64,000 nt of DNA from Protoeuglena noctilucae (lineage: Eukaryota): NCBI GenBank assembly GCA_958009085.1, contig OY253673.1, positions 806,001 to 870,000 on the forward strand. The letters are read 5' to 3'. A model generated the notes under the pieces. It made no database searches. It was not told where the DNA came from and worked only from the letters and a program-made list of their open reading frames with translations. The translations under genes were made by a program, and so were the position numbers. This document shows, piece by piece, positions 42,778 through 64,000 of this stretch. Position 1 is the stretch's first letter, and every line of letters starts with the position of its first letter.

Positions 42778-45700
42778 TCATATGATCGGCGGCCCCAGCG
42801 CTAACCCCGCCCCGCCCTGCCCCTGCGCGACGGCCACGGTCGCAGTGCCGCTCCCCTCGCGCCGCGGGGCGTCCTCGAGCCCCGGCTGCAACGAAGGGCC
42901 CGCCTGCCCGGGCCCGTCCGACCCCCACGTCTGCGTCACGCCCGAGTTGGCCACCGGGCTGGCGCCGCGGTCCGTGCCCCGCCGCTTGCTCTCCCGGTCG
43001 CCGCCCGCGTCCAAATCCACCTCCCCCACACGCCGCTTCTGCACACAGAGCAGAGCCAGAGAAGTCATGGATGCCCAGGGCCGAGTGAGCCAGTACAGTC
43101 ACACGCGTGCTTGCAGTCGGATGCCGCCCCTGACCTGCGGGGCAGCACCCGCGCCGTCCCCGCTCGCGTCGCGCGCCACCACCCCCGCCGAAGTCCGTGG
43201 CGTGATGGGGCCCTGGGCTGTGTCCTCTCTCGCAGGGTCCCACGCCGCAGGTGGAGTCGTGCCCCGCGCCCTGTCCTGCGCCTGCGGTGGGCCCTCGGGG
43301 GCCATCCCCAGGCTGTCGCCGGCCAGATGACCCGACAGGCCGGCCCCGGCGGGGTCCCGCCGGCCAAAGGCGCCATGGGGAGCGGCGGCCCAGAACCCCA
43401 GGGGCGCGACCAGGTCGGAGGCCGGCAGGGACGCCCCGGGCGGAGAGGAGCTCAGGGACATCATCGTGTGCGCCGCGTCGGCGTCGTCCTGCGGGCGCGT
43501 GGGTCCAGAAAGGCGTGGGGGGTGCTGTAACAACGCAGGCAAGCAATGGGCATGCAACTGCCATGTAGCACGGCGTGCACCCACCTGTCGCTGGGCTTTC
43601 CTCCCAATCTCCCCGAGCGGCCTCGTCAGCTTCTCCAGCTCCACCTCCGTGTCCACCCGCCTGCCGCTGACCATCCCCATGAACGCATGGCTGCAGGCAC
43701 GGCCACGGACGACGCTTGGCCTGACGTTGGAACAATAGGCCCAGCAGCGGAGCATCCCTGCGCCCTTCGCGCCGTCACATCATTGGCATGTCCACTGGCA
43801 CCCAGGGAATCGGACGTAGACACCATCAAACATCGACCTCATTCATGAACCACAATGTCATCTTCACCCATCATATCCCCCCCAATAAATCACCTGAGGG
43901 ACGGTCCCTTCGAAGACGTACCACCCCCCCGCGTGTCCCTGCCGTCTCCCTCTGAGGTTTCCTCGGCCCCACGGCTCCCCTGCGCCCCCGCCACCGCCTC
44001 TAGGCTCGTGCCGGCGGGAGCGTAGTTGTTGTTGAAGAACGGCGGGGGTCGCCGGGGCTGCCCCGGCCTCGGCGCGCTCGCGTGCACGCCGGGGTGGCCG
44101 TGCGCGTGGCCGTGCGGGTGCGGGTGCGGGTGCGAGTGCGCGTGGGTGAGCGTTTGGGGAATGAAGGTCTCTAAAAAGTCGATGAAGGCGGGCAAGTTGG
44201 GCGGGGACGATTCGAGGATGGTCGGGCTGCCGCCGAGCCCGGCGGGGGCGGCAATGGACCCGTGCAGGGGCCCCTGCAGGCTGGGGGGTGACGTCCCGAG
44301 GGGCCGCAAAAAGGCACCAGCGCTCTGGCCGCTGAGGGAGGGGGAGGAGCCGCCGGGACGCGACGGGGTGGTGGCGGGCCAGGCTCCGGCGGACATGGGC
44401 CGGGCGGGGCGGGAGGGGTCCCAGCCGAGCGCCATGTGGGGCGCGGTGGGGGCGGTCGTGGGGGCAGTGCTGTTGGCCTTGGGGTGCGCGCCCGCGCCCG
44501 CGCTGCGCATCGCCTGCCCGTCCGAGGACCGCAGGGCGTGCGTGAGGGCCGAGGGCGGCGACTGGCCGGGGTCGGGCGCCACGCGCGGCATCGCCACGCC
44601 GCGGGCGTCGGGCAGCCCGATGGCGTCGAGCGAGAAGGGCCCCGACCCGGGCAGATTGGCCAGGAAGCTTTCGGGGGAGTAGCCCCGGATGAACTCCTCC
44701 CCCCAGCTGTCCGGGGAGGTGCCCAGCAGGTGGCCCGCTGGTCGTCCCCACCCGGAGATGCCCCGGCCCAGCCGCTGGAAGTGGTCCGCGGGCATCCTGA
44801 GGTCACTGCGGAGCGCGAGGTGAGGCTGGAAGCTATGCCATAGGAATAGAAGGAGTAGAAGGGGCGATCGCAAAGACAGCCGCGAGTAGTGATGGCGATG
44901 GGTGCGCTTGGGTGCGGTGGCCGCTGTGGCAGCCTCGTCAATAGCCGATCGCCAGTCACCTGTAGATGCTCGACGGAGGGCTCGTACCCCCAGGGAAGGC
45001 GTCGTCCCGGGTCACCCCGGGGGACGCAGCGCGCCAGAAGGACGTTTCGCTCCCGAGCGTGCCCTTGCTCGGCGGGCCCAGCGGGGGTGCGGTCCCCATC
45101 TGCGGGTGCGAGCGCAGCCGCGGGGCGGGCGTCTGATGCATACGCGCAAGGATCGCGGCGAGTGCTGAAGCACAGCGTCTCGTGGAGCCCAGTATGCGCG
45201 AGCACCTCATGCTTAGTCGCATGACCTATGACCGTGAGCTCACCTGGGGCAGGGAGAGTGACCCTGGGCCCTTGCCGACCCTCATGCTCAGCCCCTGCAG
45301 ACAGTGCGAGTTGATGGCGCGCGTCGCATGCTGCCCAACTGCGGAGCGCTGTTGCGCCACGCTGTCCTCCTGCAACAGCCGCCTCGCACCTGGATCTCCT
45401 CGGTGAGCTCCCGCGCGTGCCGCGGGGTCACGGGCCGCTCGGGGGGCTTCACCACCGCCTGGGCGACGAAAGTCCTGTGGGGGACACGGTGGGCGGGCAT
45501 CACTTGTGGGATAGATGAGCCAACTGGTGCCAGGCAGGGGGAGACATCGGCGCACATCGTGTCCGTCAAGAGAGCCAAGGACGGTCCCCGTGCAAGCGCA
45601 ATGCCTCGTCTCGCGTGTGCGGCGGTGGCTCATCGCGTCACCTGTGCGCTCCCGATGCCGTCGGGCTGCCCCCCGAGGGAGACGCCGAGTTGGACAGTGC

Positions 45701-46615
45701 CTTGGCCAGCTTGCAGTTCCATTGATTCTTCACGGCATTGTCTGTGGGCGCGGCAGGCGACGGCGATCGTGCTGCGGCCGACGTGCTGTGGCTGAGTGAC
45801 ACACGCAAGCAAGAAGGCGAACCTGCCACCCGCACGAGCGGGCGCGCAGCGTGGATGTAGCTGTCAGCTCCGATAGGGTAGGAATGAGGCAGGGCATTCC
45901 CGCAGGCGCCTCCCTGCCGCCCCTCCAGCCCCTCACCGGTGCGGCCGGGCAGGGCTGCTGCGATCAGCGCCCACTTGTTTCCGTGGATCCGGTGCAACTC
46001 GATGATCGTGCGGTTTTCCTCCTCCGTGAAAGGGCCGTGGTTGAGCCGGCTGTCGAGCTGATTGGACCACCGCAATCGGCACGCCTTGGGGTCTCGGGGG
46101 GCACCACCTAGGCCCAGCTTGTTAAACTCCTCGGATATCATGTTCCACTTGGACGCGCCGTGCAATTCCACGAGCTGCGGGGAGGCCGGGGCCAGCGACG
46201 ATTGCAAGGCGGTGGACCACAGCAGAGGGGCGAGCGACGCGGCCACGCTGCACCACTGGCGGGGACCCGACACCGCGCCCCGAGACCGACGCGCCTTGAC
46301 CAGCGCTTCGTCTTCCTCCTTCGACCACGCCCGCCTGAGCTTGTCGCCGAGGACGGGTCGCGAGCGGGATTCACGCAGGCGACGACCGCCGCGACTCGTC
46401 GAGGGCTCTTCAGACGCCAATCCCGCGGACGCCGAGATGTCAGTGGCTGCGTCGCGTCGCCGTGAGTTATCGGAGTTGCGGGCCATGGCCGGGACCATGG
46501 CCGGGCCCCAGCCGGGGCTCGTGCCGATTGTCCGTCCAAATGCGACGGCTTGCCCCTGCGGTGAGGGGGCCATGCCGAAATTGGCATCGAATGCGATGGA
46601 TCTGCAGCTCTGCAT
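42778..46615 (-). CDS. R2R3-MYB transcription factor with long disordered C-terminus (alternative in-frame ATG at 46906)
   Basis: WSKEEDEALVK|LVELHGASKWNMIS...CRLRWSNQL...PFTEEENRTIIELHRIHGNKWALIAAALPGRT|DNAVKNQWN. Downstream exons include a His-Pro tract; stop at 42778. Confidence 0.85.
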
Positions 46616-47506
46616 GCGCCGAAACCGGCGCCGTGAGCTCGGACCGCGACCTTGCAGGACAACTCTGGTCGCGACTCGCGCATCGCGGGCCCCGGTGGCC
46701 CGGAGGCCTCGCAAACGACCGATATACACAGCAGGCTTGCGTGCTTTGCCTGCATGCTGGCCATCGGGTGGCCAGGACGCATAGATACCCCGGCGCGGGC
46801 TGACGCCTGATGCCCCATCCTGCACCGCCGCCCGCGCCGAGCTTTGCCCCCCCGCCTCGTCGAGCCTCATCCGCAGGGAAACTCCGCACACGATGGGGTC
46901 GTCCATCCCCACCTGGGTGGTCTCTCGGGGCGGCACCGGCCGCGCAATGTCAGGGCAGGGGAAGTCGAACCCCGCGCGAAAGGAGATGAATCTGACCGCT
47001 GCCTTTGCTTTTTATGCAATAATGTCTAAAAGCCCGCCGCCCGCCGGATAGCGAGCACGGCAAAGGCCTCTCCCCGGCTTTGAGCGGACGATGCAAAGCT
47101 CCCAGCAGCGGCAAGGGAGGGTGACCAGCACCCCCTCGCTCGGAAACAGTAAATGCGTGGCTCACACCGCGCGAAGGGAACCGAAATGCGCGCTCCCTGC
47201 GAGATTCCCATCGTTGCCAGAAGCAGGACTAGTCAGGGGAAGGCTTGAAACAATATTCAACAAAACGAGGCGCACGCGTCTGCGCATGCCGCGTGGATGG
47301 CATCACGCAAGAGAGCGGCCCGAAATCAAGCAACTCACTCGCCCCCCCCCGCCTCGAGGCAGGTCGCCTCGAGCGCAACGCCAATGACTGGCGCACCCCG
47401 CCCTCCAACGCCTTCCGCCGGCAGGAAGCTGGATGCGCTGTGTGCCGCACCCTCTGCGCCGGAACGGCAGCCAGCCCCCGCCGGCCCATGCCACCACAGG
47501 GAGACT

Positions 47507-49369
<1,863 letters not shown>

Positions 49370-49418
49370 CTAGAGGGCGGGGCGACTGCCCTCGTCAAGC
49401 GCTGGAGGCCCGCTCAAG

Positions 49419-50488
49419 ATGCCGCTCCTCTTCGCGTGCCCGGCCGTGGCGGCGCCGGGGAGGGGCCTGGGACGGCCAGGCACGGCCTGCGCCCCCCGGG
49501 CCCCGCTGGGGCGGCACGTCGCGCGTGCGGCCGCGCAAGGCGGGCTCGCGGCCCGCCTGTCCCAGTGCCAAGACGCGGAGGGCGTGTGGCTGGCGATGAC
49601 GATGCACTGCCTCACACGCGCCGAGCAGGCGTCTGGGCGGCTGCTGGTCGGCATCGCTGGGGTGCCCGGCAGCGGCAAGTCGACGACCGCGCACGAGGTC
49701 GCGCAGCTTTTGAACGAGGCGGGAACGGCGGCGTGCGTGCTGCCGATGGATGGCTTTCATCTGTACAAGAGCCAGCTGGACGCGATGCCGGACCCCGCAC
49801 AGGCGCACGCGCGGCGGGGCGCCCACTGGGTGCGTCCTGCATCGCACGGGGTGCAGACCCACACCCACGTCGCCCCGCTCACACCTCCCTGCGCTCGTGC
49901 TGCGCAGACGTTCGACGGGCGCCGCTTCGTGGAGCACCTGCGGGCCCTTCGCCACCGCGTCTCGCTGCGGGCGCCCTCGTTCGACCATGGAGTGGGCGAC
50001 CCGGTGGAGGAGGACATTGAAATTGGCCTGGATGTCGAAGTGGTCCTTTGCGAGGGCAACTACCTCCTCTTGCCGGAGGGGCCGTGGGGAGAGGCGATGC
50101 AGGTGAGGCCAGGCGGCGTGGGGCGCTGGGATGGCCACGCCGCAACCACCGAGTGTGGGCGAGAGGGCCGCACGCGTGGCTTTTCCACGCAGCACTTTGA
50201 CGAGACCTGGTTCATCGACTGCGACTTGGAAACGGCCATGGGGCGCGTCCAAGCACGGCAGCTAAGCATCGGCCTGACTCCGGAGCAGTCCCGAGGTGAC
50301 AATGTGCTCTATACACCTTCCACGGTTGATGCACGCACGAGGCTTGCGCTCACCCCGCCCCCCGTCCTCGCCCTCTCCCAGTTCGCATTGAGACGAACGA
50401 CCGCCCCAATGCACTTGAAATCCAGCGGACCAAGGACAGGGCCCACGTGCTGGTGCCGTCCCTGCCGCTCCGCAAGGAGAGGCACTGA
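49419..50488 (+). CDS. P-loop kinase of the YFH7/uridine-kinase-like family, probably organelle-targeted
   Basis: VGIAGVPGSGKST, LPMDGFHLY..LD.MPDP..AHARRGAHW|TFD, APSFDHGVGDPVE.DI, EGNYLLL and RIETNDRPNA. Confidence 0.88.
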
Positions 50489-50528
50489 GCGGGTGCGTGC
50501 CAGGGTGCGCCAGCGTGCGCCGGAGCGC

Positions 50529-51585
50529 TCACGCGAGCACCCCACAGTCCTGGATGACCACGCGCTGGAGCGGCCGCCCCGAGCGCTTGTCGGTTGCCGT
50601 GTCCTCGACCTTCCGCACGACGTCCATGCCCTCCAGCACGCGGCCGAAGACCACGTGGCGGCCGTCCAGCCAGGGCGTGGGCCCCGTCGTGATGAAGAAT
50701 TGGCTCCCGTTCGTGTTGGGGCCCGCGTTGGCCATGGACAGGCACCCGACCTGCAGCCGCAAGGGTGCACGGTCACTGCGTCGAGTGCAGTCATCTCAGC
50801 TCAGCTCAGCTCAGCTCAGCTCGTGGCAGCCGCGCCTATTAAGACGGGCAGGCCGAGGCGTTGCTCGTAGATTAGAGCGACTCGCCTCGTGGGGAACAGC
50901 GAAGGACTCGTCGGGGAACCTAGCGCCGTAAATGCTCTTGCCTCCGCGCCCATCGCCGCGCTCAAAGTCGCCTCCTTGAATGACGAAGTCCTTGATGACG
51001 CGGTGGAAAGTGCAGCCCTTGTAGCCATAACCCTTCTCACCGCTGGCAAGCGCCGCGAAGTTCGCCGCCGTCTTTGGGACGACAGAGCCGTAGAGGCCGA
51101 CCACCACGCGGCCCGCTGGCTGGTCGCCGATGCTGATGTCGAGGAACACGCGACTCGTGACCTCGGGCCTCTTCGCGTCGTCCGCATGGGCCGCCCCGGT
51201 CAGCACGCCGGCGAGAGACAGGCCCGCCAGCGCCCTGCACGATTTGCGCAGGGGTAATCGTCATTTGGACTCCGCCGTCATCTGCTAGCCGACATTGCGA
51301 CGCTGTAATGCGTCGCTCACCACAGCGTGGATCGCTTGCCAGCCTCAGCATTGCGACCCGGCCCCGATGCCTGCGCGCAATCGATAGTACGACTTCTGAT
51401 TGTTCCATCGCAGAGAAGGACCGGTGTTCAAAGCCCTGCTAGAGAGCTAGGGCCAGGCTCGAGTGGCGTGCGCATCGCACCTTGCAAAGCGGTGCGCGGG
51501 TCGTGGCCTTGCGCACCCTGCACGCTGCAATCATTGCGCGGCAAGCGGGCGCACCCGCTCCCGCGACGCATGATCGCAGAGCCAT
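50529..51585 (-). CDS. Thylakoid-lumen cyclophilin (CYP20-2-like peptidyl-prolyl isomerase)
   Basis: Bipartite presequence ending [10 protein letters not shown]. Motifs [44 protein letters not shown] and [10 protein letters not shown]. Confidence 0.92.
50795..50822. repeat. (CTCAG)5 microsatellite in cyclophilin intron
   Basis: ctcagctcagctcagctcagctcagctc. Confidence 0.9.
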
Positions 51586-51681
51586 GGCGAATTGTTTCAC
51601 TTCTAAGCCACTTGCTGCTAGACAGTCACGACGAGCTTGAATTGCAATCACTGAGCAACAAACGGCCGAAAAAATACCAAG

Positions 51682-54600
51682 TTATTGACCTCGGTGGTCA
51701 GGGCCCGTGCCAGACCCGCTGGCGCCCCGCACGTCGCGACCAGCTCCGCCTGTCTCGTGGTCCCCCCTGACTCGGCCGACCAGCTCACGCATGCCGCGGA
51801 CCGTCTCCTGCACTCCCCCCGGCCCCGCCGACGCGCACTGGCTCGCCCCCGCCCCTGCGCTCGCCCCCGCCCCCGCGCTCGTCCCCGCCATGCTCATGCT
51901 CAGCGCCAGGGCCAGGTCCAGGTCGTAGTCGTCGTCGTCTCCCAACGCAGGCGCGTCCGCGAACGCGAGCGTCTCACCCCCGCCCCGGAGCCACGCCTCC
52001 ACGCGTTCCCGCCCTTGCAGCCGCGACTGCCCCTCGTCCCGATCCCCAGCCGCTCCCGGAGAGTCGCCGGGACGCGGGCTACCTGGCCCCATCCACCCGA
52101 CAGACCCCGCATCCGACGCCCCTCCAAGGCTTCCCCGCGTTCCCAACGCCAAGCCCAGGGCGCCACCAGCCACGACAGCGGGAGCATTGGGACGCTCTTT
52201 GTCCCGCACCGACGCCGACGGCTCATGCGCCGGGGCTGGCAGTCCCGCGATGTCCGTCATGTGCGGCCGGCCCCTCTCCCGCTCCGTCAGCTGTCGTAGC
52301 ACCTCCTCCACTTCCCGGTCCGACACCTCGCGGCGCGCCGGCACCGCCTCCGGAGCCATCTCCAGTCGGCTCAGATGCAGCGCCCTGCGTGCGTTACACA
52401 AAGCGGATCCCTTCCAGAAAGCTTCCTTCCCTTCACCTTGCAACTCAATGGTGGTTCCCTGCGACTCCATCTTTGGCGATGACACCGCTATGACGCCGCT
52501 CACCGCTCCAGGGCAGCATCCTCCTCCAGCTCCCCGTTCTCCGCCCACACGTTGCGAGAGCCCACGCCCCACCGCGCGTCCCAGCCGGGGTCGGGAAGGC
52601 CCCCATCGGGGTCCACCTCCCAGGCATCCCGCTTGTACTCCAGAGCGCCCTGGCCTCCCAGAGGCGACGGAGGGTGCCGCCTCCCCAGCCCTGCCCCCGA
52701 CCCGGACCCCGACGCCCACTCGCTGCCCGCGCCCGCAGGCGCGCCGTGCCCCGGGGGCGCCTCCAGGAGCAGCGGCTGGGCGGCAGGGAGCCCCGCCCCC
52801 GCGTCACCCCCACGCCACGCCCCTCCCGAGTCCCGGCGGGCCTTCTTCAGCGATGAGCGGTGCGACGTCCCGGCCCACGTGTCAGACGGGGACGCCCCGG
52901 CGCCCGGGTCCGCCCGTGGCACGGCCCTTCCCCGCGCGGCATCCCCCGCAACCGAGTCGATGTCGTCATCGCCGGACACGTGCCCCGCCACCGACGCGTG
53001 GTCTGCGTCGTGGCCCTGCGCGGGGGGCTCCTCCAGCGACGCGCGCTTCGTCTCCTCCTCCAGCGCATCCCTGCGACGCCGAGACGGACCTCTCCTCGGC
53101 AACCCACGCACAGGCCACACCTTGTGCAGGGTCACACCGCGTGCAGGTCGACCCGGGCACAGATCATACCGCATAGGATCCAAGGGGGAGGTGGCAAAGC
53201 AGTCAGCCCCGTTGTCCAGTTTTGCAGGCCCTCACCGGAAAGACCCCCCGTCCCGGGGATCCCGCGCAAGCGTAAAGACGTTCATCTCATACGCCGCCTC
53301 GTTCAGGCGCCGGAGGTCGTGCTCCCGGCGGAATCGCTGGCGCAAGAAGTCCTGCATCTGGCTGGGGGACACGAACCAAGCCACGTAGGCCCCGTCGGGC
53401 TGGCCGTCCCCAAAGGCGTGCCCGTGGGAGTCGACCAGGCACGCCGGGCCGCGCCAGGGCACAAACATGCCCAGCGTCTCGCCCCGGCACGTGAGGAGGA
53501 TGCTGTAGCCAGCCCCGGGGGCGCCCGGTGCGGGGGCCGACGCGCCCCCCGCAGCCACAGCCCCAAAGGTGGCGCCCAGCGTCCCCGCGCCCCACGCCAG
53601 GATGTCCCACAGGTGCCGGAAGTCGTCCTGGATGTCCCCTTGTCGCGTGGGGTCGTTCGCCTCTGCCGCGTCCCCCGCCCCAGCATCGCCCTGGGCCTCG
53701 CCCCCCGCCCCAGCCCCGTCCTCCGCCGCGGGGGCCTCCAGTGCGCCGTCCGGGTAGGGCACCCGGTGGTGGACGAGCCGGGACTTGAAGGGCCCGACGT
53801 GCTCGTAGAGGTCAAAGACGGAGAAGAAGTCGTGGACGCGGTGGGCGCGCCCCGTGGCGCGGCTGTAGCCACGCCGCGCCAGCATGTGCCAGATGCAGCC
53901 CTCCTCGACGGCGCGGGCGACGTCGGCAGCGGCGGAGAGCGCCACGCCCTCCATGAGCAGCGCGGTGGCGTACATGGCGATGGTGGTGCACGCGCTGTAG
54001 TTGGAGCTCTCGTCCATCTTGCACGAGAACTGGCTGACGGTCGTGCTCGTGCGCCAGGCCACGGCGTACGTCGTGCACTGCAGCCGCTCGCCGTCCCGCG
54101 TGACGTCCGCCACGTTGTGCGCGCCCCCGCTGCCGTCGTTCTCCGTGGGGTAGTTGCTGGCGACGAGGGTGATCGGGGCCGCCCCCGCCGCGCTCACGAA
54201 GAAGCGGAAGTAGTGGCGGCCTGGCACCGTGCTGCGGGGTGGGCGAAGGTGCACAAGTGTTTCTGAAGACGCACTGGGACGAGGGGTCTCGCACCACAAA
54301 GCCTTCCTCAAGAGCCATACCTGAGAGTGGCGCGGAAGATCCGCGCCCCGACGCTGTGCATGGGCTCCAGCAGGCGCTTCCCGTTCGGGAGGTCAATGCA
54401 CAGGAAGGCAGCCGCAGGGTCGGTCACGTGGGTCGACGCGACGAGGAGGTCGACGGATGCTTGCAGCGGCGCCGAGCCTGCACCGTCACCCGCGAGCCTG
54501 TGACAACTGAGTGGCTTCCAGGTCCCGAATCGATGGCGAGCTGCGGCTCGCGGCTGGGTCGGTGGGACGGAGGCCTCATCACCTGGCGAGAGGGGCAGCG

Positions 54601-54854
54601 CCAAGCTGGGCCGCTCCGAGCAAAGCGCCGGACGCGTCGCGCGAAGTGCCGTCAAGGGAGAAGACGCCGTCCTTCTGCCCTTCCGGCCGCGAGAAGGGCA
54701 GTTCGGGGCTACCTGCGCATCCAAAAGCCCCAAGCGTCTCGCCCTTTGCGCACCCCAGAAGGCCAGACGCGCTTGCAAAGCCCCCCCTGGCCTCACCTGT
54801 CATGGACCCGACGGGATCCATGGTCTCTGTCCCGCACTCCGACGCATCCTCCAT
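51682..54854 (-). CDS. Putative VTD/C76-type deubiquitinase with N-terminal CBM48-like domain and C-terminal UIMs
   Basis: Exons ~54854-54797, 54582-54321, 54231-53236, ~53095-52504 and 52384-51682. Motifs SQF...SACTTIA and LVDSHG; PGRHYFRFFV...PTENDGSGGAHNV; UIMs EEDAALERALHLSRLE and DDYDLDLALALSMS. Confidence 0.72.
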
Positions 54855-55198
54855 CCCGTGCAAAAGCCTTACCCCCCGTGCTCTGCGGGACAGCACACGG
54901 AGCAACCGGCGTTGCCCAGGGGGCCCCGCGTTCCCCACAGACAGCCTCTGCCTCTCCGAAACGCGCAGAGGGCGTGGCCCTCTGCGCACACGGGGCAGCA
55001 GGGCGCCGCAAGGGCGCCTCGCCGTGAGCACAGCGTGGGCCTGGGCCGCCGCGGCCAAGCGGCCAGAGCGCAGCGCACCATCCTGAGCAACGTCGCAGCT
55101 GGACCTACCTCTCTCGGGCTTCTTGGTCTTTCGAATGCGGTCGAATGCGCGCCCCGGGCGCTGGGGAACGGCAGCGGCACCCGGCTGTTCACCACCCC

Positions 55199-55267
55199 GC
55201 GCGAAATCGCGACTGGCGGGCACGAGCGCGGATGGGAGCGGCCGGGCCCTCCGTCCGACTGACGTCA
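55199..55267. promoter_or_regulatory. Candidate E2F site and CRE/C-box in the divergent promoter between the DUB-like gene and cyclin A
   Basis: GCGCGAAA (reverse complement TTTCGCGC) at 55199-55206 and palindrome TGACGTCA at 55260-55267. Confidence 0.4.
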
Positions 55268-55481
55268 GGTGCAGGAATGCGGTTTCTGGCATCTGTCGCC
55301 CTCCGCCGGCCTCGTCCGTCGCCCGGGGCCCGCCGATGCACTATATTCGCTACGCCGGGGGCTGGCAGGCCGTCCCTTGTCCGCCCCTTCTTCGGCGCGG
55401 CGCCCTCCCGCAGGGTGCTCAAACCCGAATCCCCCACCCTGCCCCCCCGGGCCCGCGGCGCCCGCCCCCTGCCTGCTTAGG

Positions 55482-58400
55482 ATGTTCCCCTTCGCTTCAG
55501 AGTCCATGTACGGCGGGCCGACCACCCGCGCACGCTCGGCTTTGAATGCCAAGCGGCCTCGGGTGGAGGAGTGCGAGAACGTCGACCCGGAGGTAGATAC
55601 CCCGGCCCGCGCCGCTCCGCTCGGTCGTTTTTCTCGCTCTCCGCTCCGTCGCGACCGGACGGCCCCCTTCCGCGCCCGCAGCGCGAGCTCCACGGTCTTC
55701 GCCACGCCTTCGGCTCCCTGACCAACGCCCGCGGCCAGGACGCGACCTTCGTCAGCAAGCAGGTGAGCGTCGATAAATATAACGCGCTGGTGACCGCGCG
55801 TCCGCCATCGCGCCACTTTTGGACCGGCCCGGGACCTCCTCCAATGTTCCCGCCTTTGGGGGCGCGCCATTCGCACTGGGGCTCCCCGCGCGCCTGGCGG
55901 ATGCGATGAGCGCATGGATATTTACGCAAAGCGCGCCCGGCGATGCGCTTCGCCCCTGCGCGGGCCGCCGGGGCGGCACTCCGGGCCCCTTGTGCTCGGG
56001 GGGGCCCCGACGCCACGCACGGGGTCCGCCGCCCGAACCCCGGCCGCCCAGAGGGCAAGACGATCCCGGATCGCTCGCGGGAAGACGGCCGACCCCCCTC
56101 CCCCGCCCGCCATCGCAGGGGACGGGCGCAACCGCCAAGGCGCAGGGTACGGGGCTGGCTTTCGCCAATGCGGCGCCGCCGCAGGCCGATCGGGTGAGCC
56201 GCGCATCCAGCGACGCTTATTTCCTTAATACGCCGCGCCCGGCGCCCGGTTATGCGCTGCGCAGCCCCCGGTTTGGCCAGGCCGGGCCTTCCTTTTGGGC
56301 GTGCTGGGAAGGGCCTGCTTGGCGCCCTCCGCGGGCCGCCGCTGCTTCCGCCAGCGCTCCGCGCCCCCTTTCAGTCCCGAGTGCGCCCCCGCGGACCCGG
56401 CTGGCCCACTGGTGTCGCTACCGGGCGCTCCCAGCGACTCGGCAGGTTGGCTCCATGCCCTTTTCGCGCACGGGAAGTAAGCGCCGCATGTCCCTCCATG
56501 CCCGCTCGAGGATTGGCTTTTCGCATCCGGTGCGCTACGTCCGGGCGGACCGCGCGGCCCCCCCGGCTCGTCCCACCGCCTTGCACGCCCCCCAGCGGTT
56601 GAGGGCGTGGATCGGGCCCGTGCGCCGTTTGCCGCCCTCCCGGGACGCTGCGTATGCGTTGCGGGAATGTCGGCGGCCGAGATTTACCCCGGGGGGATCG
56701 GCGGGCGCCCGCCCGGGATGCTTTGGCAGGGTGCAACAGCCCGGACCCTGCTGGCGCCGGGAGCCCCCGCCCCCGGGGCGCCCCGGCCGCGCCGTCCGCA
56801 GCGCGCGCTCTTTGCCTCTCGTAGCGGCCAATCCGATGCCGCGGAGGCTTGGATACCGTCCCGCGGCTGAGACCTGAGGCCTGCCTTGCGCCGACGCAGG
56901 ACGCATGCTCCCGGCGGGACGGACAGGCGGAGGCTCTGTGCAATGCGCTTCCCAAGACCCCGACCGCGATCCAGAAGGTGCGCGATGCCCCGATCGCCGC
57001 GGCAGGGGCCCGGCGGGCCGGCAGCGCTCGGCCAGTCGGTGCGACCCCCGCACCCCTTGCGGACCCGCAGGACGCGGCCCGCACGCTGACGTGCGACGAG
57101 GTGTGCGTGAACGACCGCGAGGATCGCTGGGAGAACATCGGTGAGGCGCCCGCGCGATGACCCAGCGCCTCGTGCACGGCGGGACCCGCGCGGCCCCCGG
57201 CCCCCACCGCCGACGTCCCTGCCGCGCGGCCTCTCCCCAGACGTGGACCCCGCGAACCCCGTGCTCGTGGGGCGATACGCCAACAACATCTTCCGCAACC
57301 TCCAGGCATCAGAGGAGACGAAGCGCCCCAACGCGCACTACCTGGCCATGCAGACGGAGATGACGGCCCAGGTGCGGGGCACGACTTCCGCGGCCGGCAC
57401 CTGGCCCCGGCCTGTGCGACGCCCCGCGCGGCGATATCTCAGCATGACGGCGCCCTGCGCCATGACCCCAGCGCGACGACCTGCTGCACAACGCCAACCG
57501 CGTCCCCTCCCCCGGCCGTCCCCCGCAGATGCGCGCCATCCTCGTCGACTGGCTCGTGGAGGTGGCGGAGGAGTACCGCCTCAACAGCGAGACGCTCTAC
57601 CTGGCCGTCAACTACATCGACCGCTTCCTGTCCCGCGTCTTCGTCTCCAAGTCGCAGCTGCAGCTCGTGGGCATCACGTGCATGCTGGTCGCGTCCAAGT
57701 ACGAGGAGATCTACGCCCCGCAGGCGGGGGGCGTTGCTGTCAACGAGACTGGGGGTGGTGGTGGTGGTGGTGGTGGTGCGCTGGGCCCCGGCCGCGAGCC
57801 GATGCGCCGCGACCCGGCTCGCCGCCTCAGCACCTCGCCAACACCTCGTTCCGCAGGTGGACGAGTTCTGCTACATCACGGACAACACGTACACGCGCGA
57901 GGACATGCTCCAGATGGAGTCGCTGGTGCTCGACACGCTGCAGTTCGAGTTAACCGCCGCCACCAGCAAGGCCTTCCTCCGGCGCTTCCTCCAGGCCGCC
58001 CACGCCGACTCGACGCTAGAGTACCTGGCGGCCTACCTGTGCGAGCTGGCGCTTGTGGACTACGAGATGCTGCGCTTCCCGGTGAGGGGATGGGGGCGAG
58101 GGAGATTTGGCGCAGAAAGGGAGGCGCGACGGCGGTGGCGTGGGCGACGGTGCTAGGTTTCTCAGCTGCAGTGGAAGGGCGATGTGACCAAACTCGGGGC
58201 TGCGACGGGAGGGGTTGGGGTCCCTGTGTCCGCGCTTGGGCATGGTCCTCCCCTGCCGCAGCGGACGCGTCATCGCCCACGCGCCGCCCCCCTGCCGCAG
58301 GCGAGCAAGGTCGCGGCGTCCGCCGTGCTGCTGTCCCTCTACACGCTCCAGCGGCACCCCTGGACGCCCACGCTGGCCCACTACACCCAGTACCCCGCCT

Positions 58401-58661
58401 CCCAGCTCGCCGACTGCGCCCGGAGGCTCTGGGTCCTCTTCCGCAGCGCGCGCCTCCCCTCGGCGCTGCCCGCGGTGCGGGACAAGTACTCGGCCCCTCG
58501 CTTCAAGGTGAGGCCCCGTGCCGCCACCCGCAGCCCCCGCGGCCGCGGCCCTTGCGCCCCGGCACGCCGTCCTCAAGGCATCGCCGCCCCGCACGCGCCC
58601 GCAGTGTGTGTCCAAGCTCATGCACCCGCACGAGCTGCCCGGGCACATCTTCAGCGACTGA
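55482..58661 (+). CDS. CYCA: A-type cyclin
   Basis: D-box RHAFGSLTN; cyclin box [16 protein letters not shown] (A-type LVEVxEEY signature); KYEEIYAP and FCYITDNTY. About ten exons, including a 75-nt exon at 56119-56193. Confidence 0.95.
57754..57777. repeat. (GGT)8 microsatellite in cyclin intron
   Basis: Eight tandem GGT triplets. Confidence 0.9.
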
Positions 58662-59311
58662 GCTGCAACTGGCGGACCCCGCTGCACCCGCGGCGGAGGC
58701 CGCCGACGGGCGGCGCGGCGGGGCAGTCCCCGCGCGCTTGCCGCCCGAGCGTGACGCGTGGCCCGCATACCCCGCTCGCTTTTTCCTCGCTGCTCCGGGG
58801 CACCGCCCGCCTCCCCCCTGTGTTGGTCCCCCCGTGCCGCTCGCCCTGTGCGGCGCTGGGTGGGCGGGTGCGTGCACCCCGTACCCGGGGCCCGTTTCGT
58901 TTCTCGTAGGCGCCCTCCGGGCCTTCCGTGCCAGGCCCGGACGGCGACCTTGTGCTGGCTGCCGAGCCCATGCGCTCCCCGCTGGCGCCGCCTCCCGAGT
59001 GCAGACTTTGGTTCTGACATGCATAGCGCGACATAGGCACCCTCCCGTTTCCTGCGTAGCTGACCTGCTAGCTTTGCTTAGCCCCCCCGCTAGGGCACGT
59101 ATGCACGGCACGGCATGCCTCGGCGCTGCCAAGAGTCGAGATTCTATCAGCGGTCTGACGCGCGCATGCCTCGTTATCTGCGATCTAGGGCCCCCATTTG
59201 CGGCCGGCCCCGTGTGACGAGCCAGGCAATCCAGTTGAAGCACTCGTGTGCCTTGTCTTCACATGCCATCACGCGCGTTCCAATGTCACCCCTACAACCG
59301 CACGCTCCCCG

Positions 59312-61653
59312 TCACTCCCCGTCCCCGCCCTCCCCCCCATCGCCCGCGGAGCGATACGTGTCCCACACCTCCCCCAAGCTCTGCGAGCGTTGGGCAGAGT
59401 CGCACGGCTGGGCTGCCACAGGGCACCGCTCTCGCCTGCCCCCGCCATGTGCCGCACATCTCAATGCGCGACTCGCCTCGGCCATGTCCCCCAGCGCCTC
59501 CTCCTCCATCCCCCACTCCTTCACCACAGCCCTGCCACGCCGGCTCCTCAGTGCCCCCTGGACCCCGTCCCTGCGACCCACAGAGCAGCACCCCTGACCA
59601 CATCCACACGGGTACCACATGACTCGCCTGCCATGCATTGCTCTTTGCAACCCTTCCAAAGCCAGCCATTCCGTTGGCTCCCTCCCAGCCCACGCACCTC
59701 GCGCGCCGCACCAACTCCCCCGCCTCCCAGCAGCTCATCAGCCTCGTCAGCACTGGCATGTGACGCACGTGCCGCCCCGTTGAACACGCGCTCCCCGCTT
59801 CGCCATCGCGGCCCGAACTCGTCAGCCCGTCGGCGGTGAGGTGCGGGGCAAAGTACCCCGGTGTCGTCGCAGGCACGGGCTGGGGCACCGGGCATACCGA
59901 CGCGTACCGCACCCAGCCGCGACCCCTCTCCTGCGCTTCACGGACCGCCTCGCGACCAAGCGCCTCAGCCACATGCCCCGCGTCAACAACTCCACCGTCC
60001 ACCGCCAGCCCTCTGCAAGCCATGCCCCAGGGGTCCGTTGTTCCACTCGCTGTGCTGCCGAGTGCTTTCGGGTGCCAGCCTTCAGTGGAGCAATGCGCGC
60101 GGGTACAGGTGACCCCGCGCGGCTTCACCTGGCACTGACGGACTCGGCGACGAGACCGGGAGGTGGGCCCGGGGTGCGTAGGACCGACACAGGCGTGACA
60201 GGGTCGTGGATGCTTGGGCATGGGGTGGACGCGGCGAGGACAGCCACGGGGCCTAGTGGTCCGGCGACGGCGCTCACCACGTCGCGCAGAGAGGCTGCGG
60301 CCGGCCCCACGGCACGTGCCGGGGTGGTGAGGCAGTCCAGAGCGCTAGCCAGGGGCGCACCGGCCAGGTAAGCGCCGGCCGCGCCCATCACACCGGCCGC
60401 CAGGCGCCCTCGGTCGAGGTGCGGGAGGTGCGCCACGGCTCTCGCCGACAGGGGCGCCACCACGAGCGGCAGGCGCTGCTGCACGAGGGCCGCGAGGGTG
60501 AGCCCGTGCCCCAGGCGCGCCTGCAGGGCCACGCCCTCGTCTTCAGAATCAGGCGCGGTGTCGTCTGGGGCCGGGAAGTCCTCCACGGGGTGCACGAGGG
60601 CAGGGACGGTGTGGCCGACGTCGTCAGCGATGTACTGCAGCGCGTGGCAGGCGAGGGCCGAAAAGCCGGTGGGGTGGTCGAAGAGGACGTGGAAGCCTTG
60701 CAGGGAATCGCAGCTTTCAGTCTCCCGGCGAATCGCCTCCTCCAAGCCGTCCCTGAGAGGCAGAGGCAGGGCGACGGTGAGGCGATGCGAGAGGGACGGC
60801 GGCATGCGTGCTTGGGCCAGGTTGCTCGGCCGCACCTGAGCTCCTCGGAGGCGAGGACGTCCGAGCACTGCTGCCAGGACGTGAAGGGCGACGTGCCCCA
60901 CCAGACGGCTGGGAGCTGCAGGACGCTCTGCGCGCTGAGGTAGGGCTTGGTGAAGTCGGTGAAGTGGCGGGCCTGTCGCTCCAAATGGCGAGCTGCCGTG
61001 ATCGCGGGAGACTCCTCGCTGGCGGACGGGGCGCATTCAGCCTGCCCCTCTGCCTCCAGCAGGTGCGTGAAGTCGCTCTTCGGCTCCGCGGAAGCCAGGT
61101 AGTGACGTGCGGCACCGGTCTGCGAAGTCGCCGCAGGGAAACGAACATATGAATGATAAGCAAAAGATGGTTGGCAAAGGGGACAGCGGGGAGCACGGGA
61201 GAGCGCGGGGGGGCTCACCCAAGTGGACAAACCGGACGAGGCTGCCGCTGCGGCCGCCGTGGGGTCGACGCCGGGGCCCACAAGCGTTCCATGGGGCGAC
61301 CACGATCCGAGCGCGCCGCGCTTGTCGACCATCACGCACCGTGGAGTCATTGTCGACTGCCCGGAAGTGGACGCCCGCTCCCGCAGCAAGGTCCCCACTT
61401 CGATGTGGGAGGAGGCACGCTGGAACGGCCCATCCGATCCCTCCAGGCCGACAAGCTCATCCTGCAGTAGATCCGCACGCAAAACGCGTCGAACCAGCGA
61501 GCTTCTACGGTGCAGCAGCACGACAGGGCCGCTGTGCGCGCGCTTCGGCCAAAGCAGTCGTAAACGGCGCAAGCACGCAACCTGAATGTTCCAAAAGTGC
61601 GCTCCGACAAAGTTGGAGAAGGCCCCCAGCTGCAGGGTGACAATCTCCCGCAT
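59312..61653 (-). CDS. MSTO1: Misato/DML1 tubulin-FtsZ-like protein
   Basis: MREIVTLQLGAFSNFVGAHFWNIQ|DE, TPRCVMVDKRGALG, HFTDFTKPYL and IRRETESCDSLQGFHVLFD..TGFS. Confidence 0.9.
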
Positions 61654-61752
61654 GGATGCTGAGCTCCCTCCCCCCGTCTCGAGGAATCTCGCTCGCTTTC
61701 AATTGAGGCTTTCTCTGTCATGACGAAATCGGACACTCAATTCAGGAACAGC

Positions 61753-64000
61753 TCAAGCAGCGACACAGAAATAACTTACTAGCAGCTGGTGCAGCACAGC
61801 CCGCGTCAGCATGCGGGAGGTGCGCAGCACGAACTCCGCTGCCTGGACAGCCCGCTGCATCGCAGACGCCTTGGCCACGGCCAGGTCCACCACGGCGCAC
61901 GACACGACCTCCTCTCCCAGCGTGTCCTCCCCATTCATTTGCGCGCGCACCACCTCATCACCCTGCCACCTGCGCACGCCCAGCACCTCCCCCGGCCCCC
62001 CCGCCACCCACCCCCACCACGCGAGATGGACCGCACCCGAACCCCCCTCCACGCGCGCCTCTGCTGGCCCCGCCTCGAGCGTCATTGCTTGCTGGAAGTC
62101 GGCAGGTTCCCAGGCTGCGAGCGGGGATGCGCTGCGGAGACGACGCGCGACCTGCGCGCGAGAATGGGACTTGCTCAGATGTGCCGGGGCAGGGCGGCCA
62201 CTCCTGAGCTCCGTCTGGGGCGCGCTCGCGAGCGAGGCACCTCTCGCAGGCACCGAGCCAGGATGAACGGTGCTGTGGACTCGGGACCATCCCCGCGCCC
62301 ATCGGCCCTCGCGCGGCCCTCGAGGTGAGCCGCGAGGCAAAGCTCTGCGGCCCCGGCGCCCGGCACGACCCAGGGGTGTTCGACGGCCGTCCGTAGCACG
62401 TGGTGGGCCGCGTCTGCCGATGCCTGCAGCGCCGCGCCTGCGTATGGGGATCCATTCGGGGCTGATTGCCTCCAAGAGCTGATGAGACCGCAAAGACGCT
62501 TCTCAACGAAGGCCAAGGCACGAATGACGCAACGGTTGGACCGGGCTGTGGTGCATGGGGCCCACCCCGATGGAGACGCAGCGAAGCGAAAGCAAAGCAA
62601 CACACCGGCGGCCTCCGTGGGGGCGCAGCAGAGGAGCGTCAGGACGGGGCACGAGTCATCGTCGTCGCTTTCGGGCTGCTCCGACACCCGGCCCCACGGC
62701 ACGATCCCGAGGAAGTCCCTCCCCGCCACGCGCCGCAGATACACGTGTGACGCTGCGCCGAGGCTGTCGCGGAGGGCGGGGCCCAGGGCGTGCTCGATAG
62801 ACGGGAGAGGCACGGCGCCCGTGGCGCGCCTAAACGCGCCCACGTGCATCGCCGAGAGACGCTCGACTGGCAAAACGCCTCTCTTGCGGAGCGACTCCTG
62901 GACCAAGGGATGGACTGTGATGGAAGAACAAACTCGCCAGTCCAATCCCCCGCATGCTTAAGAGCAAATCTCTGCTCCTGTCAAGGTCCCCTGTGCCCAG
63001 GCTGCAGCACAGGCGCCGCCTGCTCGACAGTTCGTGACACGCAGAGGACTGCTAGTAAAATCGCGGACTCACTGGTGCGTTGGCTGGCCACCACCCTGGC
63101 CCCCGCGGCGCAGAGAGCCTCGACTGCCGCGTGCAATGCCGCCAACTGCGCTGCCTCCGGCTGCGTATCCCCCGAGAGCATGTCGATAGAGGCGGCAGGG
63201 CCGAGGTGCCGAGGAGCTTGGTCCTCCGTGGCGGCAAGCACGTCGAGCGGGCAGGTGAAGAGCGCCACAAGGTACGGTGCGTCGGCAGGGCCCATGGGCA
63301 GCAGACGCTCGTGCCCGGATTCGATCCTCAGGCGGGACGGCGCCAGGACTCCAGGCAGAAGCACGCTGGCAGCCACGGCCCCTCCCGGGGCGGCCTGTGT
63401 GGCAGTATGGTGGCAGGCAACCATCCACAGCACGTTCCCGACAGGCGACAGCACGCCCATGCTTGCGCATGCTCACCAAGGTTCGGAGCCCGGAGGCCAC
63501 GTGCCCCGTGGCGGCGGTGCGGACGAAGCCCTCGACGACGAGCCGGGCCATCCGCTCCACACCTTCCACCCCAGCCACAGGAAGGACCTTAGGGCTCAGG
63601 ACGCCCCTGGCCAAGCCGAGCAGCACGTGCGCATTGCCCCAGTCGAGCTCAACGCACATTCGTCCCACGCCCGCGTCTGGTGGGGCGTCGAAGGCAGGCG
63701 ACGCATCGTGTCCCATTGCGGGCGCTGGATGCGCGCACTTGCCACAGCGCAGGCGGGGCGGACCGTCGGAGCGGCAAGCGAGGTCCGGCGGGACGAGGAG
63801 AGCCTCCACGACGTCGGCGTGGTGTCGCAGCGCTGCCAGACACCGTACCCGGAGCGGGCCTGGAGGGAACGCCGCCGACACCTCCTGCGCGAGGAACGTC
63901 ACGACGGGGTTGGGCACAAGAGCGATTACCGACACCGTCCAAAAGAATGGGCTGTCTAATCAGGAACCGCATTGGTGTGACCGTCTCCGTCATAGCAAGG
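61753..64000 (-). CDS. MKKS: MKKS/BBS6-like chaperonin-like protein (5' end outside window)
   Basis: Exons give ELDWGNAHVLLGLARGVLSPK, ASVLLPGVL, RLLP...VALFTCPL, VVASQRT|VHPLVQESL...PVERLS, LTLLCC, AAHHVLRTAVEHPWVVPGAGAAELCLAAHL and VVDLAVAKASAMQRAVQAAEFVL. These are collinear with human MKKS segments as I recall them. Confidence 0.75.

Follow-up and report, generated by a model that had tools for sequence, protein, structure and literature searches.

A transcribed gene of Protoeuglena noctilucae probably encodes a divergent VTD-class cysteine protease with a CBM48-like module and two ubiquitin-interacting motifs

The window analysed here is a 64,000-nucleotide (nt) stretch of the Protoeuglena noctilucae genome (positions 806,001-870,000 of contig OY253673.1, assembly GCA_958009085.1; all positions below are those of the window). 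On its minus strand lies a transcribed gene whose 876-residue product is probably a divergent cysteine protease of the VTD class, combined with a beta-sandwich resembling carbohydrate-binding modules of family 48 (CBM48) and with a disordered tail carrying two ubiquitin-interacting motifs (UIMs). By direct translation, the ATG is found at 54854-54852 and the TAA stop codon at 51684-51682, and in frame upstream of 54854 there is a stop codon and no other ATG. The exon structure was taken from RNA contigs of four marine metatranscriptome runs (X1-X4) mapped on 51400-55300; the runs belong to a single study, X1 and X3 represent the same sample, and no inference was drawn from those parts of the gene that have no RNA cover in some runs.

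In these contigs six minus-strand GT-AG introns are spliced out. The most upstream one, 54883-55108 (226 nt), lies in the 5' untranslated region (UTR) and was removed in one contig, from X1 only, which joins a 5'-UTR exon of at least 55109-55201 to position 54882; the transcript starts at or beyond 55201. The start-codon exon (54797-54882, coding part 54854-54797) is followed by an 84-nt intron, 54713-54796 (joint 54710/54795), removed in X1 and X3, and by coding exon 2 (54583-54712, 130 nt), which encodes a low-complexity N-terminal region. Removal of 54498-54582, again in X1 and X3, leads to coding exon 3 (54321-54497, 177 nt) with the first half of the CBM48/AMPK-beta-like beta-sandwich, and removal of 54232-54320, in X1, to coding exon 4 (53236-54231, 996 nt) with the second half of this module and the whole VTD domain. 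The last two introns, 53071-53235 and 52385-52503 (119 nt), were each removed in three of the four runs (X1, X3 and X4). Between them lies coding exon 5 (52504-53070, 567 nt), a low-complexity linker whose last codons form the acidic half of UIM 1, and after them coding exon 6 (51682-52384, 703 nt), which completes UIM 1 and also encodes UIM 2 and a low-complexity tail. RNA joints on both sides and a check of the frame define exon 2; exons 3, 5 and 6 are likewise supported by RNA and frame. The RNA-supported coding sequence (CDS; 54854-54797, 54712-54583, 54497-54321, 54231-53236, 53070-52504 and 52384-51682) comprises 2631 nt, an open frame of 876 codons followed by the stop. It belongs to a spliced and transcribed nuclear gene with six coding exons in a GC-rich eukaryote, probably a marine green alga (G+C of the window, 68.8%). 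In the first-pass annotation, made from the letters alone, the exon of about 1 kb that encodes the catalytic domain had been counted as the third; it is the 996-nt exon with RNA-confirmed splices on both sides, and it is the fourth coding exon, with the 5'-UTR exon further upstream.

Two 3' splice sites 20 nt apart are in use at the start of coding exon 3. The acceptor at 54497 (X1, X3) keeps the frame, and the one at 54477, seen in X4 through removal of 54478-54582, shifts it and leads to a stop at codon 91; this form may be a non-productive isoform. A gene model joining exon 1 directly to 54477 is open as well but was discarded, as the RNA contains a further exon, 54712-54583, and uses the 54497 acceptor. 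Run X2 yielded only unspliced contigs (52222-53189 and 54643-54977) over introns that the other runs remove, which could be genomic DNA or pre-mRNA in the library.

The stretch 53235-54233 translates on the minus strand to a 333-residue sequence, P0001, that contains VSQFSCKMDESSNYSACTTIA and, later, SILLTCRGETLGMFV...CLVDSHG. Translation bore out all peptides and coordinates quoted in the first-pass annotation, including the codons of the Gln, the Cys and the Asp-x-His motif. The proposed nucleophile is Cys203 (P0001 C82; 53988-53990), identified by alignment, conservation and its place at a predicted helix start, and the Asp-x-His motif is Asp389-Ser-His391 (P0001 D268-S-H270; 53424-53432), identified by alignment, conservation and a predicted strand end. 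Gln189 (P0001 Q68; 54030-54032), which aligns with the Gln of TQY in the Waddlia chondrophila enzyme Wc-VTD1, is the proposed oxyanion-hole residue, a role known from work on the herpesvirus protease M48.

The assignment to the VTD class was based on sequence profiles and on the predicted fold, and it places a papain-fold domain (peptidase C76-like) at about residues 56-326 of P0001, or about 177-447 of the full-length protein (53256-54068). A single-sequence phmmer search with P0001 against the PDB gave no match. When the trimmed family profile A2 was run against 177,635 distinct PDB sequences, only two matched at E≤1, namely Wc-VTD1 (8ADB/8ADC, E=3.4e-9, 39.8 bits) and DrT1-VTD2 (8ADD, E=3.5e-4); the untrimmed profile A1 gave E=7.4e-6 for Wc-VTD1 and 0.72 for 8ADD. 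The entries 8ADB and 8ADC represent Wc-VTD1 with and without ubiquitin, and 8ADD is a VTD encoded by a zebrafish Helitron (Erven et al. 2022, PMC9741609; cited here and below from the available part of the article). In the A1 alignment the family motif TQ(Y/F)...AC(T) falls on TQY...ACT of Wc-VTD1, with the Cys at chain residue 35 of 8ADB, and FDSHG falls on FDPHG, with Asp162 and His164 of the 8ADB chain; in profile A2, D-S-H is also aligned with FDSH of 8ADD. Since the crystal construct begins at residue 279, the aligned residues correspond to C313, D440 and H442 of Wc-VTD1, the alanine mutants of which are inactive (PMC9741609). For the catalytic Cys of Wc-VTD1 the same article has Cys319 at one place in the text and C313A in the legend of a figure; the distance from Cys35 to Asp162 in the 8ADB chain fits C313 with D440. 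Asp-x-His is described there as an invariable hallmark of VTDs that mirrors the papain active site (PMC9741609). With the profile matching only VTD chains in the PDB at E≤1, the catalytic motifs aligned and the residues conserved, the herpes-tegument-type (VTD/C76) assignment made in the first-pass annotation is supported. As a lead only, 18 of the 30 nearest clusters in a protein-language Atlas belonged to the PF04843 set (top score 0.95, 198 shared features). The domain itself stays below the gathering score that delimits the narrow Pfam family PF04843 (Herpes_teg_N).

Conservation was then read from the family alignments, in which Q68, A81-C82 and D268-S269-H270 are invariant across the four long proteins. 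Fragments P0009 and P0011 do not contain the C-terminal half of the domain, where their alignment is spurious, and fragments P0007 and P0010 do not contain the N-terminal half. Among the rows that cover the respective site, Gln is present at Q68 in six of six; Cys is found at C82 in six of six true alignments (fragment P0010 would add a seventh Cys, but its alignment is doubtful), and D-S-H in all six rows truly covering it. The preservation of all four residues (Gln, Cys, Asp and His) in the window and wherever a relative covers them speaks for selection on catalysis. After the His, four rows have Gly, one has Ser and one has Ala, and the strand that follows carries no conserved acidic residue in these alignments.

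The fold prediction agreed with the profile results. An AlphaFold2 model of P0001 built from an alignment of eight sequences reached a pTM of 0.61, with pLDDT values of 70-89 in the core blocks; the N-terminal 55 residues and a Gly/Ala-rich insert (154-206) were disordered, Cys82 was the first residue of helix 82-94, and Asp268 ended strand 264-268. When the model was compared with the PDB by Foldseek, the best six matches were all VTD chains (probability 0.99-1.00); after a gap came AvrPphB at 9.4 and other YopT-like domains at 7-9. A scan independent of Foldseek over 48,161 representative chains returned the same top three. The domain is accordingly modelled as a papain-like alpha-beta-alpha fold that is predicted to superimpose on M48, DrT1-VTD2 and Wc-VTD1.

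To place the gene among its relatives, 1.84 billion representative proteins were searched exhaustively with phmmer. Eight proteins matched at E≤0.001: the window protein itself (P0004), three long relatives, P0005 (776 residues, 47% identity), P0006 (829 residues) and P0008 (1001 residues), and four fragments. P0004 is a public protein record (53235-54299) whose first 22 residues are read from the upstream intron and which ends at the downstream intron; as it spans one exon between introns, the deposited or predicted protein represents just one exon of the 876-residue product. A word-index homologue search, run in both length classes, recovered only the window protein itself and the name of P0008, which is recorded as a hypothetical protein from Bryopsis sp. 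KO-2023. Scanning metagenomes for patterns with profile A4 yielded three loci among 322 pattern matches, of which L002 equals the P0005 gene except for one residue and the other two resemble the query to about the same degree. The suggestion in the first-pass annotation that the protein may define an algal deubiquitination system is overstated for a single small gene family.

The tail was examined for the UIM pattern, that is, an acidic run followed by a hydrophobic-x-x-Ala-hydrophobic-x-x-Ser core, and two distinct matches were found with cores at residues 641 and 798 of the full-length protein. UIM 1 (52360-52532) lies across the 119-nt intron: the exon ending at 52504 encodes ...ELEEDAALE and two bases of an Arg codon, and the exon from 52384 completes this codon and continues with ALHLSRLE. 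The first-pass annotation had predicted a UIM formed by splicing, and the removal of this intron in the RNA confirms it. UIM 2 (51892-51939) consists of an acidic run followed by LDLALALS and scored 9.9 bits (E=0.97) with the Pfam UIM model (PF02809), the cut-off of which is 21. None of 5000 shuffles of the tail reached the observed three pattern sites (two distinct motifs), and 286 of the 5000 had at least one. P0005 carries two UIM patterns, P0006 one and P0008 none, and P0005 scored 20.1 bits against the Pfam cut-off of 21, its best stretch being a motif that closely matches UIM 1 of the window. A third, "degenerate" UIM listed in the first-pass annotation, DALEEETKRASLEE, was rejected, as it matches neither core nor pattern and is not conserved in the closest relative; its claim of UIMs in the tail stands for the other two motifs. 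Ataxin-3 (Josephin plus UIMs) and USP25 are UIM-bearing deubiquitinases (DUBs). In both, as in the algal protein, short UIM helices in a disordered tail accompany a catalytic DUB domain; the catalytic class differs, and the analogy, functional only, suggests that UIMs could assist the engagement of ubiquitin chains.

The evidence for the N-terminal module is consistent with a CBM48/AMPK-beta-like beta-sandwich at about residues 70-165, at scores below threshold. For its C-terminal half (54087-54230), the window's own 48 residues had AMPK1_CBM (PF16561) as their sole Pfam match, with E=0.14 and 12.8 bits against a cut-off of 26.8, and P0008 matched the same family at E=0.026, also under the cut-off. 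With the N-terminal profile A3, the best 15 matches in the PDB were all AMPK beta carbohydrate-binding modules (E 0.039-0.34); alignment A3 mis-stacked the two exon pieces of the window, and this result rests mainly on the homologues. For residues 8-100 of P0006, all ten structure rows of the Atlas were AMPK1_CBM clusters (TM 0.64-0.72), and the feature matches included AMPK1_CBM, CBM48 and CBM20 clusters. At L002:2812-3000 the frame is open upstream of the Met called for P0005 and encodes more beta-strand-like sequence, so that the CBM-like module of P0005 is longer than in the database protein. In P0008, residues 1-32 and 877-947 gave weak zinc-finger-like matches (zf-Di19, E=0.055; Yippee/Mis18, E=0.73). 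With these weak matches at both ends and no UIM pattern, P0008 indicates that accessory modules differ between lineages. The combination of modules recurs among the relatives, with two UIMs in P0005, one UIM and a CBM-like N-terminus in P0006, and a CBM-like N-terminus in P0008.

In our best explanation, the protein consists of a low-complexity N-terminus, the beta-sandwich, the VTD domain and a long disordered tail with the two UIMs. Cys203, at the N-terminus of the core helix, would attack the isopeptide bond after Gly76 of ubiquitin, with His391 as the putative general base. Asp389 lies on the strand of His391, two positions before it, and would orient it, giving the "inverted" Cys-Asp-His triad typical of VTDs, and Gln189 would help to form the oxyanion hole. 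The UIMs may bind ubiquitin moieties of chains or of ubiquitinated substrates and keep them near the catalytic domain, and the beta-sandwich module may localise the enzyme or bind a partner. We infer catalytic activity from the intact residues alone; we also infer ubiquitin rather than ubiquitin-like specificity, a linkage preference and what the UIMs and the CBM-like module do. By analogy, a K6-type linkage preference is possible, since the closest sequence match, Wc-VTD1, is grouped with K6-directed enzymes of bacteria, fungi and protists (PMC9741609).

Several observations weigh against this reading. Pfam, PF04843 included, had no family on P0001 at E≤10, and none matched the VTD domain at E≤1 in four relatives (P0005-P0009). 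The family is very small, with eight representatives of which four are fragments. The AlphaFold2 model is of moderate confidence (mean pLDDT 56.7, 117 of 333 residues at or above 70, eight sequences only), and a model from the single sequence was unusable (pLDDT 37.6). The architecture of CBM48-like module, VTD domain and UIMs proposed in the first-pass annotation does recur in relatives, but both the CBM48-like and the UIM calls stay under the curated Pfam thresholds. In the A3 alignment, residues 59 (Lys) and 66 (Trp) of the 1Z0N chain face Cys/Arg and non-aromatic residues, and the region of the first Trp is unaligned; the positions of Lys126 and Trp133 of AMPK beta-1, which we take to be sugar-binding residues, are thus not conserved where they can be aligned, which makes glucan binding doubtful. 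Finally, some characterised VTDs did not react with mono-ubiquitin probes (PMC9741609), and activity may therefore be hard to show.

A rival reading takes the protein for an algal member of the plant DUC family. According to the available part of a 2025 preprint (10.64898/2025.12.04.692294), DUC enzymes have an N-terminal beta-sandwich followed by a DUB domain of VTD-like fold, as does the algal protein, both are of the green lineage, and single DUC copies are reported in selected algae, in some of which the C2 domain is divergent or absent. The fold alone cannot separate VTD from DUC; the decision came from the invariant Asp-x-His, the small residue after the His and the two VTD sequence matches, with DUC set apart by its published description and not by direct sequence comparison. 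In that description, the triad of DUC is Cys-His-Asp, the His is followed by an aromatic gatekeeper (C318, H441, F442, D456), a C2 domain is present and no sequence similarity to other DUBs is detectable. The window family, in contrast, has an invariant Asp-Ser-His followed by Gly, Ser or Ala, with neither a gatekeeper nor a conserved acidic residue on the next strand, it shows significant sequence similarity to two VTD structures, and its N-terminal module is AMPK1_CBM-like, not C2. Moreover, the exhaustive phmmer search returned only the eight matches and no land-plant-like relatives among them. We consider an algal DUC extremely unlikely.

Two further alternatives accept the VTD fold and differ in what it does. 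The protease might act on a ubiquitin-like modifier or on another protein, as do enzymes of the YopT/AvrPphB type; VTDs are argued to have evolved from non-DUB proteases (PMC9741609), and specificity is not readable from sequence. All VTDs whose testing is described in the available part of that article acted, however, on ubiquitin, and the Waddlia enzymes did not react with SUMO, NEDD8 or ISG15 probes. The tail carries UIM-like motifs that are conserved in relatives, and in one HMM alignment, to be taken as a hint only, the acidic residue of the family motif (L/F)D(L/I)Y falls on Glu363 of Wc-VTD1, a residue whose mutant was assayed for ubiquitin binding (PMC9741609). A substrate other than ubiquitin thus appears unlikely. 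Highly improbable, in our judgement, is a catalytically inactive ubiquitin-binding scaffold of the kind seen in the insect iVTDs: such inactive VTDs do exist (PMC9741609), and outside its two folded modules the protein is mostly low-complexity, but none of the residues Gln, Cys, Asp and His has been lost, either in the window or in any relative that extends over them, as the first-pass annotation had expected for Cys, Asp and His in an active enzyme. The divergent VTD-class protease with its beta-sandwich and two-UIM tail remains the probable explanation. A bolder version, which we hold to be decidedly unlikely, is that Chlorophyta kept or acquired a resident VTD in which the CBM48-like module tethers possibly K6-directed chain editing to a glucan or to an SnRK1/AMPK-beta-like partner, and that the layout of beta-sandwich plus VTD is the ancestral state from which DUC arose by re-inversion of the active site. 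If true, this ancestral layout would form a connection between VTD and DUC, DUB classes that are at present regarded as having no sequence relationship.

VTDs were defined in 2022 as the eighth class of eukaryotic DUBs, with a patchy distribution (Erven et al. 2022, PMC9741609), and are absent from mammals and plants according to the available part of the 2025 preprint, which is from the same group (10.64898/2025.12.04.692294). The available text of PMC9741609 contains none of the words "plant", "Chlorella" and "Chlamydomonas", and "alga" only in a person's name; "Chlorophyta" occurs only as a tip label of the schematic tree in its Supplementary Fig. 6b, in the available copy of which the VTD marking was not legible. 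No description of a chlorophyte VTD or of the CBM48-like, VTD and UIM architecture was found in the searchable full-text literature. The VTD class is known, and what is new is the lineage and the architecture variant. Compared with Wc-VTD1 (8ADB/8ADC), a member of the bacterial/fungal/protist subfamily to which it is about 15-17% identical, the algal domain has a low-complexity insert of about 45 residues between its helical and sheet halves and a longer, conserved F/Y-G-D-G-x-P loop after the His; host and architecture differ too, and the K6 specificity belongs to that subfamily. With the ubiquitin-specific protease of murine cytomegalovirus M48 (2J7Q), which represents the large-tegument DUBs of herpesviruses (C76, PF04843), the identity is 12% and the PF04843 model finds no match; the algal protein is cellular and is encoded by an intron-containing gene among housekeeping genes, not as part of a giant capsid-associated tegument protein. 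DrT1-VTD2 of zebrafish (8ADD) is Helitron-encoded, whereas the algal gene has no transposon context in the 30 neighbouring open reading frames (ORFs) scanned. With this gene, which is expressed, contains introns and encodes all the catalytic residues, the VTD class reaches the green lineage and gains an architecture with a CBM48-like module and UIMs. As Pfam misses the domain, such proteins are annotated as hypothetical, the Bryopsis relative among them. The gene is a tractable candidate for studying the role of VTDs in free-living cells, a possible influence of the UIMs on linkage preference and the relationship between the VTD and DUC folds.

The surroundings of the gene are those of an ordinary gene-dense chromosomal region. 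ORFs recognised by the domain scan lie at 45641-47011, 47993-49369, 50531-51260, 60391-61698 and 62178-62957 on the minus strand and at 49374-50867 and 57161-59214 on the plus strand, and the domains found in the neighbouring ORFs were Myb, Ras, P-loop kinase-like (a MeaB match), cyclophilin, cyclin N/C, Misato and TCP-1. A transposon or viral origin of the locus was rejected in view of these ordinary neighbours and of the 30 ORFs scanned between 42.6 and 64 kb, in which no Rep, helicase, OTU or capsid domain was detected. At the 3' end of the DUB gene, within 50972-51802, RNA contigs from X1, X3 and X4 cover the letters from 51480 up to 51802 (X1); these comprise the 3' UTR and in X1 also the last 120 nt or so of the DUB CDS. 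On their 51480 side the same contigs run on into letters that match 51340-51369. This jump points to a 110-nt GT-AG intron on the minus strand (51371-51480) and to a link into the downstream cyclophilin gene, which could be an overlapping 5' UTR of the cyclophilin gene, read-through transcription or a merge in the assembly.

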